From a virus (Duplodnaviria > Heunggongvirae > Uroviricota > Caudoviricetes): a stretch of DNA of 4,253 nt. The stretch lies in IMG/VR virus record IMGVR_UViG_2713896778_000030, one strand, 5' to 3'. The position numbers and the translations under genes are program-made. The notes beneath the pieces are model-generated. The model did no database searches. It had not been told where the DNA came from and saw nothing but the letters and a program-made list of their open reading frames with translations. Position 1 is the first letter of the stretch, and the number at the start of each line of letters is the position of its first letter. This document shows positions 1-4,253 of the stretch, piece by piece.

Positions 1-64
1 GAGACTTTCTGAAGTAAAGGCGCATACCGCTTAGTTACCGCTCTGATAACTCTTACCTGTCCTG

Positions 65-97
65 CAATGGCGCTGATGTCAATATAAAGCGCCATTG
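65..97. other. Perfect 10-bp inverted repeat (stem-loop); possible + strand terminator
   Basis: CAATGGCGCT (65-74) and AGCGCCATTG (88-97) are exact reverse complements with a 13-nt loop. A C/T-rich tract CTGCTTCTTTGCC follows on the + strand. All three + frames have stops within the first 35 nt, so an upstream + strand gene could end just before it. Confidence 0.35.
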
Positions 98-335
98 CTG
101 CTTCTTTGCCGATCCCGGGATGCCTTCCATTCTGATGTTTGACTTCGCCCACTGAGAAACCCTCTGTTTCCCCTTAACGCCGGGGTAGCGGAACAAAAAC
201 CTGCTGCATAGTTATTAAAGTTGAACCCTGCCGTCATGTTCATACGCCTCGGGCTGGCTACTTAACCCCTGACCACTGCCGGGTAACTCGAAGTATTTCC
301 CTGCGTTCTGTGGGGCGGGGTGGGTTGGTATTTTT

Positions 336-363
336 AGTTTAATAAACATTAAACTTAAGTCAA
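336..363 (-). promoter_or_regulatory. Leftward PL-like promoter (-35 TTGACT, 16-nt spacer, -10 TAAACT on the minus strand)
   Basis: The reverse complement of 358-363 (agtcaa) is TTGACT and of 336-341 (agttta) is TAAACT. These are the same two hexamers as the rightward promoter at 1351-1380. An operator-like palindrome covers the spacer and -10. Confidence 0.4.
337..354. promoter_or_regulatory. Operator candidate OL: 18-bp palindrome GTTTAAT-AAAC-ATTAAAC
   Basis: The 7-bp arms GTTTAAT and ATTAAAC are exact reverse complements around a 4-bp spacer AAAC. It has the same architecture and spacer as the site at 1362-1379. Confidence 0.5.
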
Positions 364-376
364 GTAAAAACTAAAC
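359..376. promoter_or_regulatory. Degenerate second operator-like site ending in ACTAAAC
   Basis: gtcaagt-aaaa-ACTAAAC: the right arm is the conserved heptamer and the left arm matches the consensus at about 5 of 7 positions. The following CTAAACCG-N-GG (371-381) recurs at 1393-1403. Confidence 0.3.
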
Positions 377-386
377 CGCGGGACAT

Positions 387-419
387 AACAAACACAACGC
401 TTTTGATAAAGTCGTTGCG
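387..419 (-). terminator. Weak candidate intrinsic terminator downstream of the toxin gene
   Basis: On the minus strand, cgcaacg (rc of 413-419) pairs with cgttgtg (rc of 393-399), giving 7 bp including one G-U, with a 13-nt loop, followed by TTTGTT (rc of 387-392). The stem is short and the U tract is interrupted. Confidence 0.25.
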
Positions 420-447
420 GTTGTTATGTTTCTATTGGTAGTGAAAG

Positions 448-726
448 TTAGGGAAACTGGCGTCTTGCGTGGATCACGTTTACTACTTCAACGCTTGATG
501 TTGTTACGCGGTATAGAATTATATAGTTAGGGTGGGCTACAATCTCACGCAAGCCAGGTACTCTGTCGCTTGGTGGGTATAAATACGGATGTTCGGATAA
601 CGGCAGCACACAACCCCTTAATCGCTGCCATAAGCGTTCAGCCGCATCTATGTCGAAACGAGCAATATAACTAGTTATATCATCTAGGTCGGTATCTGCG
701 CTTTCAAGCCATAACACGGGTAACAT
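448..726 (-). CDS. parE2: ParE-family type II toxin (RelE/ParE fold), 92 aa
   Basis: Minus-strand ORF with ATG at 726-724 and TAA at 450-448. Protein begins MLPVLWLESADTDLDDITSYIARFD and ends VVNVIHARRQFP; length and N-terminal pattern fit ParE toxins. The start is 1 nt after the antitoxin stop (TAA-a-ATG), with a GGAG Shine-Dalgarno (rc of 739-742) inside the antitoxin 3' end. The symbol is recalled from the three-component paaR-paaA-parE systems of E. coli O157:H7; paralog 1 versus 2 cannot be resolved from memory. Confidence 0.75.
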   Translation of the reverse strand: MLPVLWLESADTDLDDITSYIARFDIDAAERLWQRLRGCVLPLSEHPYLYPPSDRVPGLREIVAHPNYIILYRVTTSSVEVVNVIHARRQFP

Positions 727-727
727 T

Positions 728-919
728 TTACTGCTTGCTCCGTTCCTTGCGCATCTTAGCAAAGCGTTCTGCCATTCTGCGCTCAACTTCGTCATGGGGA
801 ATTGCTGGGCGCGGATCTGCAAGGCTCGTTGCTACTTTCGCACGCAGCCATTCGTTGTAACTGTTTTCTTGTTCAATGGTTTCAAATTCAGAAACCATTG
901 GTGAAAGGGCTCTATTCAT
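728..919 (-). CDS. paaA2: Small antitoxin partner of ParE (PaaA-like), 63 aa
   Basis: Minus-strand ORF with ATG 919-917 preceded by GGAGGA (rc of 923-928) and TAA at 730-728. Protein MNRALSPMVSEFETIEQENSYNEWLRAKVA...KMRKERSKQ is highly charged, as expected for a small disordered antitoxin. It sits immediately upstream of and coupled to the ParE gene. The 63-aa length matches my recollection of PaaA2. Confidence 0.65.
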   Translation of the reverse strand: MNRALSPMVSEFETIEQENSYNEWLRAKVATSLADPRPAIPHDEVERRMAERFAKMRKERSKQ

Positions 920-939
920 GTTTCCTCCGGTTTTATAAC

Positions 940-1311
940 TCAGGCGCGGCGGCATTTTTGCGCCGCAATCCATCTCGCTATGAGATCTTCCATTGATTCT
1001 TTTTTCTGCTTTAACTCGCTGATTATCTGGCGTTGCTCATCCTCAGGGAAGGCTGAAAAAATCTGCAATAATTCCAGTTGATTAGACGTTAACCCTGCAT
1101 GTGGTGGAGAAACCCCCGGTTGTTCTGCGTATTCCGCATCCAGATACCCTTCCGGCATCCCGTATGTTTGCTCTATTCTTCTGGCAGCCTTTTCTCCAAA
1201 CGAGGCTCTCCCACTCATTAGTTGAGATAGGTAGCTCTTCTCTTTGGGTGGCAGAGTTTTATCTTTAAACCACTCCTTGAGACGTAAACGGCGAATTTCT
1301 TTTTTTTGCAT
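940..1311 (-). CDS. paaR2: HTH transcriptional regulator (PaaR-like); putative CI-type prophage repressor, 123 aa
   Basis: Minus-strand ORF with ATG 1311-1309 and TGA 942-940. Protein starts MQKKEIRRLRLKEWFKDK and carries an HTH with recognition-helix-like segment KSYLSQLMSGRASFGEKAARRIEQ. It is first in the operon with the antitoxin and toxin and divergent from a cro-like gene. There is no Shine-Dalgarno; a -10-like hexamer sits 6 nt upstream of the ATG. The upstream in-frame ATG at 1374 would lie inside the divergent promoter region. Confidence 0.65.
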   Translation of the reverse strand: MQKKEIRRLRLKEWFKDKTLPPKEKSYLSQLMSGRASFGEKAARRIEQTYGMPEGYLDAEYAEQPGVSPPHAGLTSNQLELLQIFSAFPEDEQRQIISELKQKKESMEDLIARWIAAQKCRRA

Positions 1312-1317
1312 GTGGTA

Positions 1318-1346
1318 ATTATCTTTAGTAATCACTAAACAAGCAA
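1318..1346 (-). promoter_or_regulatory. Leftward PRM-like promoter for the repressor operon
   Basis: On the minus strand, -35 TTGCTT (rc of 1341-1346), a 17-nt spacer, and -10 GATAAT (rc of 1318-1323). The spacer is exactly the 18-bp operator-like site at 1323-1340. The predicted transcription start falls at or next to the A of the ATG at 1311. Confidence 0.4.
1323..1340. promoter_or_regulatory. Operator candidate (OR, PRM-proximal): cTTTAGT-aatc-ACTAAAC
   Basis: TTTAGT (1324-1329) and ACTAAA (1334-1339) are exact reverse complements around a 4-bp spacer. It shares the heptamer ACTAAAC with the sites at 1373-1379, 1392-1398 and 370-376. Confidence 0.5.
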
Positions 1347-1350
1347 ATAC

Positions 1351-1380
1351 TTGACTCAATGGTTTATTAAACACTAAACT
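1351..1380 (+). promoter_or_regulatory. Rightward PR-like promoter for the cro-like operon
   Basis: -35 TTGACT (1351-1356), an 18-nt spacer, and -10 TAAACT (1375-1380). The hexamers are the same as in the leftward promoter at 336-363. The -10 lies inside the operator-like site at 1362-1379. Confidence 0.45.
1362..1379. promoter_or_regulatory. Operator candidate (OR, PR-proximal): GTTTAtT-aaac-ACTAAAC
   Basis: 7-bp arms with one mismatch around spacer AAAC; same spacer and arm consensus as the site at 337-354. Confidence 0.5.
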
Positions 1381-1387
1381 CGCAAAA

Positions 1388-1398
1388 AAACACTAAAC
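1388..1398. promoter_or_regulatory. Operator half-site aaac-ACTAAAC
   Basis: Third copy of ACTAAAC preceded by the AAAC spacer motif, with no matching left arm. It lies between the PR -10 and the cro-like Shine-Dalgarno. Confidence 0.3.
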
Positions 1399-1408
1399 CG
1401 AGGAAGGT

Positions 1409-1711
1409 ATGACATTAAAAGAGTTTATTAAATCATTAAGGGTTGGTGATGCTAAGAAATTCGCGGCCAGACTTGGTGTATCGCCATCTTACTTATCGCA
1501 AATGGCGTCTGGACGAACAGCTATATCTCCAACCCGCGCCCTTATGATCGAATCTGCGACGGAAGGCCAAGTAAGTAGGGCGGAGCTACGACCTCATGAT
1601 TGGGAGCTTATTTGGCCTGAGTATGCGAGCGGCATTCGTTTGGGGCAAACACATGTAGTTCATGCTGAAGGTGATTGTAGTGCATGCTTATCTGATGGAG
1701 TTGATTCATGA
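1409..1711 (+). CDS. Cro/YdaS-like HTH DNA-binding protein, 100 aa
   Basis: ATG 1409 preceded by AGGAAGG (1401-1407). HTH segment AKKFAARLGVSPSYLSQMASGRTAISPTRALMIESAT resembles the YdaS/Cro family. It is divergent from the repressor gene. The stop TGA 1709-1711 overlaps the next ATG (ATGA). Confidence 0.65.
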   Translation: MTLKEFIKSLRVGDAKKFAARLGVSPSYLSQMASGRTAISPTRALMIESATEGQVSRAELRPHDWELIWPEYASGIRLGQTHVVHAEGDCSACLSDGVDS

Positions 1712-2198
1712 AAATCAAGCATGAACACATCCGCATGGCGATGAATGTCTGGGCGCATCCGGACGGCGAAAAAGTACCGGCTGCGAAAATTACCAAAGCG
1801 TATTTCGAGCNNNNNNNNNNNNNNNNNNNNNNNNNNNNNNNNNNNNNNNNNNNNNNNNNNAAGCGTATTTCGAGCTGGGAATGACGTTCCCGGAACTGTA
1901 TGACGACAGCCATCCGGAAGCCCTGGCCCGTAATACCCAGAAAATTTTCCGTTGGCTGGATAAAGACACCCCTGATGCTGTTGAAAAAATGCAGGCTCTG
2001 TTACCGGCGATCGAAAAGGCGATGCCGCCTTTGCTGGTGGCCCGTATGCGCAGCCACAGTTCTGAATATTACCGTGAGATCGTCGAACGGAGGGAGCGGC
2101 TGGTGAAGGATGTCGATGATTTTGTTGCGTCAGCGGTTGTTTTGTATGACCAGATGAATCGCGGCGGCCCGGCAGGGAATGCTGTGGTGATGCACTAA
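1708..2198 (+). CDS. YdaT-family (CII-like) regulatory protein, interrupted by an N run; about 141 aa once the gap artefact is removed
   Basis: ATG 1708; the N-terminus MKIKHEHIRMAMNVWAHPDGEKVPAAKITKAYFE reads up to the N run. After the N run the sequence (K)AYFELGMTFPELYDDSHPEALARNTQKIFRWLDKD...VVMH continues to TAA 2196-2198 in a frame offset by 2. A 15-mer is duplicated on both sides of the gap. Family assignment is recalled similarity to Rac-prophage YdaT and gene order after the cro-like gene. Confidence 0.6.
1811..1860. other. Assembly or scaffold gap (50 N) with duplicated flanks
   Basis: The 15-mer aagcgtatttcgagc occurs at 1796-1810 and again at 1861-1875. The two flanking reading frames differ by 2, which equals 65 mod 3 (50 N plus one copy of the 15-mer). 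Confidence 0.8.
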
Positions 2199-2220
2199 AA
2201 GCACGGTGTTCGGGGGTTTT

Positions 2221-3183
2221 ATGAGCAGCAAGCTTCATGGTCTTGTCTGGGAAGGGTGCGCCTTCACCGGCATGATCTTATCCAGGGTGGCGGTTATGGC
2301 CCGTCTTGCAGACTACAGCAATGACGAGGGCGTGTCATGGCCTGCCATTGAAACTATCCGGCGTCAGATCGGTGCAAGAAGTGAATCCACAGTGAAATCG
2401 GCTATTGCAGAACTGGCGAAAGAGGGCTGGCTGACGAAGGAAGAGCGTAAGGTCGGTGGGCGTAATGTAAGCAATATCTATCGGCTTAATGTGGAAAAAC
2501 TCGAAGCAGCTGCGGCGGCGGCGCGTGAGTCATATAAACCGAAAAGAAAAATTAGCCCGGCAAAAAATGACCCGTTAACAGTTGACCCGTCAAATATTGA
2601 CCCCTCAACGGTTGACCCGTCAAATTTTGATGGATCAACTGTTGATAAAAAACTGCCGATTAGGGGGGCGATGATTGACCCCGATCCGTCAGTATTAAAA
2701 CCTGATCCGTCAGATAAAAGATCTTCTTGTCCGGACGCTTCGCAACCGGACCCGCAGACGGCTGAACAGGATTTTTTAACCCGACACCCTGACGCGGTTG
2801 TGTTCAGTGCGAAAAAACGCCAGTGGGGAAGTCAGGAAGATTTGGTGTGCGCACAGTGGATCTGGGGACGAATCGTGAGTCTTTACGAGCAGGCGGCCAG
2901 CGATGATGGCGAGATCACTAGACCGAAAGAACCCAACTGGACAGCATGGGCCAATGACGTTCGCACAATGCGGATGCTGGATGGCAGAACTCACAGACAA
3001 ATTTGTGAAATGTTTGGGCGTCTCCAGCGGGATTCGTTCTGGGTAAAAAACATCATGAGTCCGGCAAAACTCCGGGAAAAATGGGATGAACTGGTTATCC
3101 GCCTGGGGCGTTCGCCTGCGCAGCGTTGCGTGAATCACATTTCTGAACCGGACACTGAAATACCGCCGGGCTTCAGGGGGTAA
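2221..3183 (+). CDS. Phage replication initiator (O-like), 320 aa
   Basis: ORF 2206-3183 in the supplied track opens at GTG; the preferred start is ATG 2221, 4 nt after GGGGG. The N-terminal region (LSRVAVMARLADYSNDEGVSWPAIETIRRQIGARSESTVKSAIAELAKEGWL) looks like the winged-helix N-domain of phage replication initiators. A central linker has tandem peptide repeats DPLTVDPSNIDPSTVDPSNFDGSTVD encoded by iteron-like DNA repeats. The C-terminal domain is not recognised specifically. Confidence 0.65.
   Translation: MSSKLHGLVWEGCAFTGMILSRVAVMARLADYSNDEGVSWPAIETIRRQIGARSESTVKSAIAELAKEGWLTKEERKVGGRNVSNIYRLNVEKLEAAAAAARESYKPKRKISPAKNDPLTVDPSNIDPSTVDPSNFDGSTVDKKLPIRGAMIDPDPSVLKPDPSDKRSSCPDASQPDPQTAEQDFLTRHPDAVVFSAKKRQWGSQEDLVCAQWIWGRIVSLYEQAASDDGEITRPKEPNWTAWANDVRTMRMLDGRTHRQICEMFGRLQRDSFWVKNIMSPAKLREKWDELVIRLGRSPAQRCVNHISEPDTEIPPGFRG
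2566..2655. repeat. Candidate replication origin: tandem 15-bp iteron-like repeats inside the initiator gene
   Basis: Head-to-tail 15-bp units: aatgacccgttaaca (2566-2580), gttgacccgtcaaat (2581-2595), attgacccctcaacg (2596-2610), gttgacccgtcaaat (2611-2625, identical to unit 2), tttgatggatcaact (2626-2640), then an A-rich unit gttgataaaaaactg (2641-2655). The core TTGAC-CC-GTCAA has inverted-repeat arms. Related copies (tgaccccgatccgtcag, cctgatccgtcag) lie at 2676-2713. Confidence 0.55.
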
Positions 3184-3224
3184 GTGTTAATTTCTGGTCA
3201 TGAGGTAATTTTCAGGAGGGCTTG

Positions 3225-3274
3225 NNNNNNNNNNNNNNNNNNNNNNNNNNNNNNNNNNNNNNNNNNNNNNNNNN
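3225..3274. other. Gap (50 N) removing the 5' end of the following gene
   Basis: AGGAGG (3214-3219) lies 5 nt before the N run, and an open reading frame resumes at the first base after it (3275). No duplicated flank is visible here. Confidence 0.7.
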
Positions 3275-3553
3275 GAGCTGGTTGCCAGTGGCGATGTATA
3301 CAACTCTGGTTACGGGTTATTCCCGTCTGAACAGGCTCGTAAGGACTGGCAAAATGCCCGCAAAAAACTATCTAGGGCAAAGGTGAAGAAACCATCTGTG
3401 GTTGATCCGGATCTTATCTGGTCATTACCAGACGGAGAAATACGCCGCTACGACAGGCGTCTGAACATAATCTGTAGCGAGTGCCGGAAGAGCGAAGCTA
3501 TGCAGCGTGTACTGGCTTTCTATCAGGGTAATTTTCAGAAGGTGCTGTTGTGA
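3275..3553 (+). CDS. Ren-like protein, 3' fragment (start codon inside the N run)
   Basis: Open frame from 3275 to TGA 3551-3553 encoding ELVASGDVYNSGYGLFPSEQARKDWQNARKKLSRAKVKKPSVVDPDLIWSLPDGEIRRYDRRLNIICSECRKSEAMQRVLAFYQGNFQKVLL. The C-terminal motif N-L-[VI]-x-[KS]-E-C-R-x-S-x-A-M-x-R-V-L-A-x-Y matches my recollection of the lambda Ren C-terminus (NLVFKECRQSAAMKRVLAVY). It sits directly downstream of the replication gene, as ren does in lambda. This rests on memory, not a search. Confidence 0.45.
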   Translation, partial: ELVASGDVYNSGYGLFPSEQARKDWQNARKKLSRAKVKKPSVVDPDLIWSLPDGEIRRYDRRLNIICSECRKSEAMQRVLAFYQGNFQKVLL

Positions 3554-3658
3554 GCCAAATTAACAATCGGAACTTCGTGAAGAGAAAGCATAATCCAAAT
3601 CTGAATAATTAAGTTCAGCACTGTAAATAAAATTTAATCCTTAACTGGAGGTATATTT

Positions 3659-3871
3659 ATGTTAAATACACAGAAAGCCATTAATGCGGAAAAATATAAC
3701 GAGTGGGCAAGAAAATTCTCTGAGCAGATTTTTAAAATTACTGGCGATGAGAATGCGGCAAAAAATGAATTAGAACCGTGGACGCCTGAAGGAGCCGACC
3801 CAAATTATTGCTGGAGGGAGGTTGATCCAGTTGATGCTGCAAATGAAGCTATGAGTTATCACAACGATTAA
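3659..3871 (+). CDS. Small acidic hypothetical protein, 70 aa
   Basis: ATG 3659 preceded by TGGAGG (3646-3651) with a 7-nt spacer; TAA 3869-3871. Protein MLNTQKAINAEKYNEWARKFSEQIFKITGDENAAKNELEPWTPEGADPNYCWREVDPVDAANEAMSYHND has 14 D/E against 7 K/R, with an acidic C-terminal half. The gene is visibly more AT-rich than the replication genes. No family recognised. Confidence 0.5.
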   Translation: MLNTQKAINAEKYNEWARKFSEQIFKITGDENAAKNELEPWTPEGADPNYCWREVDPVDAANEAMSYHND

Positions 3872-3881
3872 TGTCAGGAGG

Positions 3882-3897
3882 CCGCCCGAAAGGGCGG
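3882..3897. other. GC stem-loop CCGCCC-GAAA-GGGCGG
   Basis: Perfect 6-bp G/C stem with a GAAA tetraloop, 11 nt after the stop of the 70-aa gene. There is no U tract on either strand, so it is not a canonical intrinsic terminator; it may be an RNA stability or processing hairpin. Confidence 0.45.
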
Positions 3898-3983
3898 TAA
3901 TGAATGGTCACATTATTTAGAAAAAATATCCGCGAAAGAGTAGAACAACAGAATTTCTGTTTCTCATTCTGTTTATCGTGTTG

Positions 3984-4121
3984 ATGATACCGATATCCCC
4001 GTTAATCCTAGTCTGGATAATCGGAAAAATAATTGAGCCAGTTATTGAATTGTATAACGACGTGGTATGGGCGTCATTCAACACACTGCACAATAAAATT
4101 AATCCGTATAAGGAAAACTGA
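3984..4121 (+). CDS. Small hydrophobic protein, 45 aa as written; probably the distal part of a ~73-aa membrane protein broken at an A6 tract
   Basis: ATG 3984 to TGA 4119-4121 encodes MIPISPLILVWIIGKIIEPVIELYNDVVWASFNTLHNKINPYKEN. The frame is open upstream to 3921 (KKYPRKSRTTEFLFLILFIVL...) without a start codon. An ATG at 3904 in the +1 frame reads MVTLFRK into the A run 3921-3926. The stop overlaps the next gene start (TGA-t-ATG). No Shine-Dalgarno precedes 3984. Confidence 0.3.
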   Translation: MIPISPLILVWIIGKIIEPVIELYNDVVWASFNTLHNKINPYKEN

Positions 4122-4122
4122 T

Positions 4123-4253
4123 ATGGCAACTTTGACAAAAAAAGAACGGGCATGGTTGAACGAATTACAGGAAGTTCTTGATCGCTGTCCATCACCGAAA
4201 AAAATTGGCTTTTACACCATTGGCGATAAAAGCATTTACCTGTATGACCTACG
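4123..4253 (+). CDS. Hypothetical protein, 5' fragment (continues beyond the window)
   Basis: ATG 4123 with AGGA (4111-4114) 8 nt upstream; open to the window end. Encodes MATLTKKERAWLNELQEVLDRCPSPKKIGFYTIGDKSIYLYDL, which has normal globular-protein composition. Not recognised. Confidence 0.4.
   Translation, partial: MATLTKKERAWLNELQEVLDRCPSPKKIGFYTIGDKSIYLYDL

Follow-up and report, generated by a model that had tools for sequence, protein, structure and literature searches.

The three minus-strand genes at positions 448–1311 of the window (the whole 4,253-nucleotide stretch of viral DNA that was analysed) very probably constitute the paaR2–paaA2–parE2 operon, which belongs to the immunity region of a lambdoid prophage, of the CP-933P/Sp12 type, in pathogenic Escherichia coli, with PaaR2 playing the part of lambda CI and PaaA2–ParE2 forming an addiction module in the slot of rexA–rexB. 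The locus is real and was read correctly by an earlier note that had only the sequence to go on, but it is already known in detail. The comparison with rexAB, which that note had drawn, is itself in print: Prolic-Kalinsek et al. (PMC9986795) place the toxin–antitoxin pair explicitly in the rexAB slot. The current study supplies gene identity, anatomy, the promoters and operators recognizable from the letters, the setting in the prophage and the distribution. DNA binding, regulation, operon structure, bistability and plasmid stabilization are taken from published experiments on near-identical sequence (99.8 %, O157:H7).

The operon and its products

The genes of the region are as follows.

940–1311, minus strand: paaR2, 123 aa, ATG at 1311–1309; CI-analogue repressor with an N-terminal HTH domain and a DicA-like C-terminal oligomerization region
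728–919, minus strand: paaA2, 63 aa; antitoxin without a DNA-binding domain
448–726, minus strand: parE2, 92 aa; ParE-family toxin
1409–1711, plus strand: ydaS, 100 aa; Cro analogue (Pfam YdaS_toxin, E 3.3e-12; HTH_3, E 6e-7; weak P22_Cro; PHROG 35 'transcriptional repressor')
1708–2198, plus strand: ydaT, CII analogue (distal part matching Pfam YdaT_toxin, E 8.8e-11); split by an assembly gap
2221–3183, plus strand: replication-initiator gene in the position of lambda O (Pfam HTH_36, E 2.1e-6; weak DnaD_N), bounding the immunity region on the right

The open reading frame list and direct reading of the sequence both confirm the three minus-strand genes, and the coordinates and spacing given in the earlier note are exact: 20 nt (920–939) lie between paaR2 and paaA2, and 1 nt (727) between paaA2 and parE2. 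The start of paaA2 is preceded by GGAGGAAAC-ATG, in which a GGAGG Shine–Dalgarno sequence lies 5 nt upstream of the ATG. The paaA2/parE2 junction reads TAA-A-ATG, with parE2 beginning one base past the paaA2 stop codon.

ParE2 matches the Pfam ParE_toxin family (PF05016; E 1.9e-16, 60.9 bits with the cut-off at 23) and is identical at 92/92 residues (100 %) to the crystallized E. coli O157:H7 ParE2 (PDB 5cw7_B). The same RefSeq protein, WP_001303511.1, is common to O121 and O157:H7 genomes. PaaA2 is recognized by its own Pfam family (PF21217 PaaA2; E 1e-19, 70.7 bits against a cut-off of 27), has no HTH, RHH or AbrB match in Pfam, and is identical over residues 2–63 to PDB 3zbe_A. The region thus holds the constituents of a PaaR–PaaA–ParE system, namely a ParE-family toxin, a PaaA-type antitoxin and a tightly spaced regulator on the same strand directly upstream of paaA2. 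A single transcript, toxicity of ParE2 and its neutralization by PaaA2 have been reported for the same locus, with identical ParE2 and PaaA2 proteins (PMC8630535).

Residues 1–66 of PaaR2 are identical to PDB entries 7nkv, 8c3k and 8c3l, which represent the PaaR2 N-terminal domain and were deposited as 'Phage repressor protein CI'. Over its full length, the protein differs from PaaR2 of O157:H7 strain EC4115 by a single substitution in the inter-domain linker, G67V (V67 in the window). Protein searches against characterized PaaR, PaaA and ParE proteins, which the earlier note had advised, end in complete identity for ParE2 and PaaA2 (5cw7, 3zbe) and in one substitution for PaaR2. The calculated mass of EC4115 PaaR2 (G67) with a His6 tag, 15081.0 Da, matches the 15081 Da published for PaaR2-His (PMC8630535), which ties the EC4115 sequence to the studied protein. 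The tagged V67 protein of the window has a calculated mass of 15123.1 Da, and its identity with the full-length studied protein was rejected by intact mass (15123.1 vs 15081 Da); it is a V67 variant.

PaaR2 matches PHROG 5736 ('transcriptional regulator', E 2.3e-39), and its residues 71–119 resemble NCBIfam DicA (PRK09706) with an E of 1.1e-6, a hit below the curated cut-off. DicA is the repressor in the CI position of the Qin prophage, and the similarity to it lies in the C-terminal region of PaaR2. The 123-aa protein gave no Pfam match at all, neither to an HTH nor to an S24 peptidase, and PaaR2 is described as devoid of a peptidase motif and unresponsive to SOS or mitomycin C (PMC8630535). 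Because the S24 peptidase domain is absent, PaaR2 is not a member of the CI family, and its induction route would be unlike that of lambda. PaaR2 is a DicA-like short prophage repressor, a functional analogue and not a homologue of lambda CI.

Control region and regulatory circuit

The regulatory features identified in and around the operon are listed below.

1312–1408, no strand: OR region, 97 bp between paaR2 and ydaS, with repeated operators and the promoters PRM933P and PR933P
1346–1318, minus strand: PRM933P, weak, −35 TTGCTT (1346–1341), 17 nt, −10 GATAAT (1323–1318); from a relaxed promoter scan
1351–1380, plus strand: PR933P, TTGACT–18 nt–TAAACT; from the promoter scan
336–363, minus strand: PL933P-type leftward promoter, TTGACT–16 nt–TAAACT, just beyond parE2, with flanking OL-like repeats at about 333–381
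1701–1718, no strand: OM, the main operator of YdaT (TTGATT-N6-AATCAA), lying on the ydaS/ydaT junction and linked to PRE933P
383–429, minus strand: hairpin, putative operon terminator (timm-like position), between the parE2 stop codon and PL

The earlier note had described the repressor gene as divergent from a cro-like gene across an operator-bearing region, which agrees with the content of the 97-bp OR. The half-site TTTAGTR occurs four times within 1324–1397, where 1.02 occurrences would be expected in the whole window, and the observed total was reached in 0/200 shuffles. A direct repeat, D1, links 1324–1347 to 1363–1386. The promoter that had been suspected near 1318–1346 is PRM, the leaderless start of which has been mapped by 5′-RACE (PMC8630535). 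In the window, 6 nt separate the end of its −10 element from the A of the paaR2 ATG, an arrangement that suits a leaderless paaR2 transcript. On the far side of the operon, the PL hexamers found by the promoter scan are the same as those of PR, and repeats I1, I7, I9 and D2 link 337–381 to OR. Correspondingly, the published PL933P has the same −35 and −10 elements as PR933P and is accompanied by three OL operators (PMC8630535). The arrangement is that of a lambdoid switch: divergent repressor and cro-like genes lie over common repeated operators that overlap both promoters, and a second OL/PL set lies beyond the repressor operon. The OM motif, for which a YdaT footprint has also been described (PMC9986795), has one exact match in the window, with 0.02 expected by chance.

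The hairpin downstream of parE2 corresponds to inverted repeat I2, with 22-nt arms that are 82 % complementary and a 3-nt loop. RNA of the minus strand from 365 to 447 has a predicted folding energy of −24 kcal/mol (z = −5.2), equalled in 0/200 shuffles. A simple terminator scan made no call at 383–429, as no T-run follows immediately; we infer that this hairpin probably terminates the operon. Within the operon, the standard scan of the minus strand detected nothing resembling a promoter, either in paaR2 or in the 20 nt that separate it from paaA2, and nothing resembling a terminator between one gene and the next. A relaxed scan picked out a weak promoter-like site inside paaR2 at 1050–1022 on the minus strand (TTCCCT–17 nt–GATAAT, 8/12), with a consensus score equal to that of PRM. 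This candidate site could give rise to some PaaR2-independent transcription of the toxin–antitoxin genes.

Jurenas et al. 2021 (PMC8630535) mapped PRM, PR, PL and PRE, and showed PaaR2 to be a functional analogue of lambda CI, and YdaS and YdaT to be analogues of Cro and CII. Repression of PR and PL by PaaR2 and its autoregulation of PRM were shown by EMSA and DNase I footprinting, by reporter fusions and by the bistability of the locus (PMC8630535). Footprints of PaaR2 and YdaS occupy overlapping sites across the 97-bp region, each protein represses PRM, PR and PL, and PaaR2 at low levels activates PRM (PMC8630535). YdaT activates PRE, which can also drive the operon (PMC8630535). Two heritable states, 'RAE2-on' and 'ydaST-on', make the locus bistable, and mutation of paaR2 abolishes one of them (PMC8630535). 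The proposal in the earlier note that the HTH gene is the CI equivalent of this prophage is thereby upheld, in the sense of an analogue and not a homologue: the N-terminal domain is that of 7nkv and 8c3k, and the protein represses PR and PL and autoregulates PRM (PMC8630535).

A working model can be put together for the window. The weak PRM would drive a leaderless paaR2 mRNA starting at the ATG, in keeping with the 5′-RACE, N-terminal sequencing (MQKKE) and mass spectrometry reported for this mRNA and its product (PMC8630535). PaaR2 would bind the repeated operators in the 97-bp OR and at OL, and so would repress PR (ydaS–ydaT and then the replication genes) and PL while autoregulating PRM, the part taken by CI in lambda. 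YdaS would compete in a Cro-like manner for the operators of PaaR2, generating the bistable switch, and YdaT bound at TTGATT-N6-AATCAA would activate PRE as CII does, opening a second route into the operon.

Prophage context, distribution and related systems

Positions 1–1810 and 1861–3224 of the window are 100 % identical to a prophage of E. coli O121 strain RM8352. This prophage lies beside potC, and its gene order is int-xis-exo-kil ... parE2-paaA2-paaR2 / ydaS-ydaT-O ... Q ... lysis; the annotation of the RM8352 prophage includes no second repressor. The module thus lies between int-xis-exo-kil and the replication, Q and lysis genes, as it also does in phage Evi. The replication-initiator gene has been identified as an o homologue (PMC8630535). 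Further to the right, 3275–4253 is mosaic, with 96 % identity to O121 and a best match of 98.4 % to any complete genome. The interruption of ydaT consists of 50 N at 1811–1860 together with a 15-bp duplication, and a comparison locus (L001) carries an intact 426-bp ydaT. The possibility that runs of N conceal relevant sequence was considered and rejected, the assembly gaps lying outside the operon.

The paaR2–paaA2–parE2 locus of CP-933P (O157:H7 EDL933) and Sp12 (Sakai) is the same locus, with identical ParE2, PaaA2 and YdaS proteins that share their RefSeq accessions. The likeness extends to gene order, spacing, the 97-bp OR, PRM, PR and PL and the YdaT operator, and the DNA is 99.8 % identical to O157:H7 genomes. 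Because of this match and a neighbouring 'ECs_2282 family' gene, the prophage was grouped with Sp12/CP-933P. It differs from the O157:H7 copy in having V67 in place of G67 in PaaR2, and represents the variant of O121 and related Shiga-toxin-producing E. coli.

Of 5426 complete E. coli genomes, 595 contain the whole three-gene module together with OR, and 579 of the matching records reach at least 99 % identity. The module also occurs in the deposited genome of Escherichia phage Evi, where it is 98.3 % identical and none of the four reading frames is broken; a literature search on this phage returned incidental mention only. About 38 genomes match the toxin–antitoxin part of the query only. In E. 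coli RM9245, two regulators precede a paaA–parE pair whose proteins are 92 % and 91 % identical. A PaaR2 orthologue (74 % identity) occupies the cI position beside the operators. Between this orthologue and paaA there is a 153-aa XRE-type HTH protein with a C-terminus 54 % identical to that of PaaR2. The toxin–antitoxin-only genomes and the RM9245 variant agree with a published proposal in which immunity regions gained the pair by insertion. A regulator of its own may have come with the pair, and the RM9245 variant could reflect entry as a self-regulated three-gene cassette, the regulator of which was later lost.

Comparison with lambda cI-rexA-rexB and cro-cII reveals the same plan. A leftward, leaderless repressor transcript from PRM is divergent from cro and cII analogues over common operators; there is a second operator set at PL, the repressor gene is followed by two co-transcribed passengers, and on the right there is a replication gene. 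However, no sequence homology to CI, Cro, CII, RexA or RexB is seen, and the repressor is without an S24 autocleavage domain. The OR carries four 18-bp inverted repeats (PMC8630535), compared with three operators in lambda, and the place of RexAB is taken by a ParE toxin with its antitoxin. DicA/DicC of Qin (E. coli K-12) and RacR/YdaS/YdaT of Rac also resemble the locus, in combining a short HTH repressor that has a DicA-like C-terminal region with YdaS/YdaT members on the opposite strand. Qin and Rac have no paaA–parE pair behind the repressor, however, and the N-terminal HTH of PaaR2 is divergent, with no Pfam HTH match. Classical parDE systems (RK2, Vibrio cholerae, Caulobacter) share the ParE-fold toxin, the short unstable antitoxin and plasmid-stabilizing addiction. 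In contrast to these, PaaA2 lacks a DNA-binding domain and is not autoregulatory, control resting with the prophage repressor network, and ParE2 reportedly neither binds GyrA59 nor inhibits gyrase.

Role of the toxin–antitoxin pair

In the model outlined above, paaA2 and parE2 would be passengers in the slot of lambda rexA–rexB. PaaA2, which is unstable, intrinsically disordered and without a DNA-binding domain, would sequester ParE2. On loss of the locus, PaaA2 would decay and ParE2 would then damage DNA and induce the SOS response. PaaA2–ParE2 would thus act as an addiction module guarding the immunity region, and hence the prophage, from deletion or replacement. The role in prophage maintenance suggested by the earlier note finds published support in the stabilization of an unstable mini-F plasmid, which the locus achieved as efficiently as ccdAB (PMC8630535). 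This result applies to plasmids and not to a chromosomal prophage, and, CP-933P being cryptic, maintenance of lysogeny has been demonstrated in reporter constructs only. The authors propose that addiction protects the immunity region against rearrangement (PMC8630535), and we infer that addiction is the natural selective function of the pair.

The further suggestion that toxin expression is tied to the lysogenic state holds in part. The toxin gene is co-transcribed with the repressor, but both states of the switch allow transcription of the operon, PRE offers another route into it, and ParE2-dependent SOS induction, the sign of ParE2 activity, was detected in neither state (PMC8630535). The toxin–antitoxin genes might be expressed mainly from an internal promoter of their own and so independently of the immunity switch. 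Both states give appreciable expression of a reporter placed at the 3′ end of the operon (PMC8630535), and the site at 1050–1022 within paaR2 scores as highly as PRM (8/12). This reading is nevertheless unlikely. The standard scan of the minus strand gave neither a promoter in paaR2 or the 20-nt gap nor a terminator between the genes, and the gaps, at 20 nt and 1 nt, are too short to hold regulatory DNA. Moreover, earlier expression studies, in the summary given in PMC8630535, indicated a single operon repressed by PaaR2, and reporter output tracks the PaaR2/YdaS state both up and down (PMC8630535). A different challenge to the CI-like role of PaaR2 would make it the DNA-binding half of an antitoxin that has been split in two, a dedicated regulator and not an immunity repressor, with the cro-like neighbour incidental. 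Such an origin would account for the missing DNA-binding domain of PaaA2 and recalls the first description of the locus, by Hallez et al. 2010, as a three-component toxin–antitoxin system in which the regulator represses its own operon (as related in PMC8630535). Pair-linked regulators do exist, as the second HTH protein of RM9245, with its PaaR/DicA-like C-terminus, lies directly upstream of paaA–parE. Nonetheless, PaaR2 footprints extend over each of the two divergent promoters, PaaR2 also represses PL, a promoter outside the toxin–antitoxin operon (PMC8630535), and these data on PR and PL have already largely refuted the dedicated-regulator reading. It is rendered highly improbable by the loss of one state of the bistable switch on mutation of paaR2 (PMC8630535), the resemblance of the PaaR2 C-terminus to DicA, a CI-position repressor, and the annotation of no other repressor in the RM8352 prophage. 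In RM9245, too, it is the PaaR2 orthologue (74 % identity) that occupies the cI position next to the operators.

If PaaR2 is accepted as the immunity repressor, the pair linked to it could still have a purpose other than addiction. Defence genes are often found in the repressor-linked 'moron' slots of temperate phages, and phage defence is a function of some toxin–antitoxin systems. PaaA2–ParE2 might accordingly be a functional replacement of RexAB, an abortive-infection or exclusion system fired by a superinfecting phage, for example through shut-off of host transcription or degradation of PaaA2, with addiction a secondary side effect. The rexAB-like position and co-transcription with the repressor are compatible with this, as is the intact and nearly invariant state of the module in 595 genomes and its presence in the genome of phage Evi. 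However, neither protein has homology to RexA or RexB, the Pfam matches being to ParE and PaaA2 alone, and a PADLOC search gave no defence-model match for PaaA2–ParE2, or for any of the three proteins, at E <= 0.01. A literature search found no paper testing or reporting phage exclusion by the pair. It has also been argued, by the group behind the studies of the locus, that activation of a type II toxin through antitoxin decay takes at least 1 h and is slower than the phage cycle. As addiction has direct experimental support (PMC8630535), exclusion as the main function is judged quite unlikely, and PaaA2–ParE2 is best regarded as an addiction module.

With the locus already dissected genetically, biochemically and structurally, the finding as such adds nothing to the literature. 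Its practical worth lies in annotation. RefSeq labels PaaR2 a 'hypothetical protein', PaaA2 a 'RelB family antitoxin' and YdaT a 'toxin YdaT family protein', as against the published immunity repressor, PaaA-type antitoxin and CII analogue. Phages and prophages that carry the module and are still lytic, Evi being a candidate, could serve to test exclusion, the target of ParE2 and inactivation of the repressor.

Assembly gaps and the distal segment

Two runs of undetermined bases interrupt the window, and the segment beyond the second differs in its affinities from the sequence that precedes it:

1811-1860: run of 50 N, an assembly gap with a 15-bp duplication on its flanks
3225-3274: run of 50 N, an assembly gap standing in for 143 bp of the DUF977 gene
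3275-4253: C-terminus of the DUF977 gene product, a 70-aa ORF and a DUF4014-like ORF

The duplicated sequence around the first run, AAGCGTATTTCGAGC, is found at 1796-1810 and again at 1861-1875. This run splits the ydaT gene of the window artificially; in L001, the prophage locus of E. coli O121 RM8352, ydaT is an intact gene of 426 bp. Neither run is an equal-length mask.

The first 3.2 kb of the window matches the O121 prophage perfectly, whereas the distal segment shares only 96% identity with it. Amongst complete E. coli genomes, the best identity of the distal segment is 98.4%, so the source prophage is mosaic and lacks an exact representative in the genome collection.

Related immunity modules and their annotation

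Comparison with other genomes reveals both a close relative of the module and a four-gene variant of the operon:

L002 14825-16088: entire immunity module in Escherichia phage Evi (LR597642.1), 98.3% identity, reading frames intact
L003 5989-7289: four-gene operon variant in E. coli RM9245

The Evi sequence is a deposited genome of 40 kb. The record annotates neither parE2 nor an integrase; close to the position for the latter is a 'mobile element protein'. In RM9245, a PaaR2 orthologue (74% identity) is followed by an extra XRE-HTH protein of 153 aa, then PaaA (92%) and ParE (91%). The extra protein has a PaaR/DicA-like C-terminus, and its gene shares 32 nt with that of the antitoxin. The variant operon occupies the same lambdoid immunity position, facing YdaS and YdaT homologues. 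Two further genomes, those of strain 472 and AUSMDU00002545, match window positions 1-1800 in two pieces, with an IS1203 insertion between them. The insertion lies outside 448-1408, because this region matches AUSMDU00002545 in one piece.

RefSeq names for the corresponding part of the O121 prophage (L001 20448-22133) are behind the literature: PaaR2 is a 'hypothetical protein', PaaA2 a 'RelB family antitoxin' and YdaT a 'toxin YdaT family protein', although the published role of YdaT is that of a CII-like regulator, not of a toxin (PMC8630535). In the clustering at 90%, 132-aa HTH proteins (P0019, P0022 and P0030) with a PaaR-like C-terminus are grouped with the 63-aa PaaA2. No similarity between these proteins and PaaA2 was evident, and their inclusion is probably a clustering quirk.

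Candidate control sequences of the operon

A strong hairpin (383-429; 22-nt arms, -24 kcal/mol, z = -5.2) sits between the stop codon of parE2 and the PL-type promoter. One possibility is that it terminates the operon, in the position of timm in lambda; another is that it is a bidirectional terminator. Phage Evi carries four substitutions across 379-406, two of them in the left arm.

Within paaR2, two features were located:

1111-1116: PaaR2 codons 66-67, G66-V67 in the window, G66-G67 in O157:H7 EC4115 and E66-I67 in phage Evi
1022-1050, minus strand: weak sigma-70-like site, TTCCCT-17 nt-GATAAT, 8/12

Amongst these three sequences the inter-domain linker of PaaR2 is variable and the remainder of the protein invariant. 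The sigma-70-like site, approximately 100 nt upstream of paaA2, scores the same as PRM, the mapped paaR2 promoter. Basal transcription of the toxin-antitoxin genes, independent of PaaR2, could start from this putative site.
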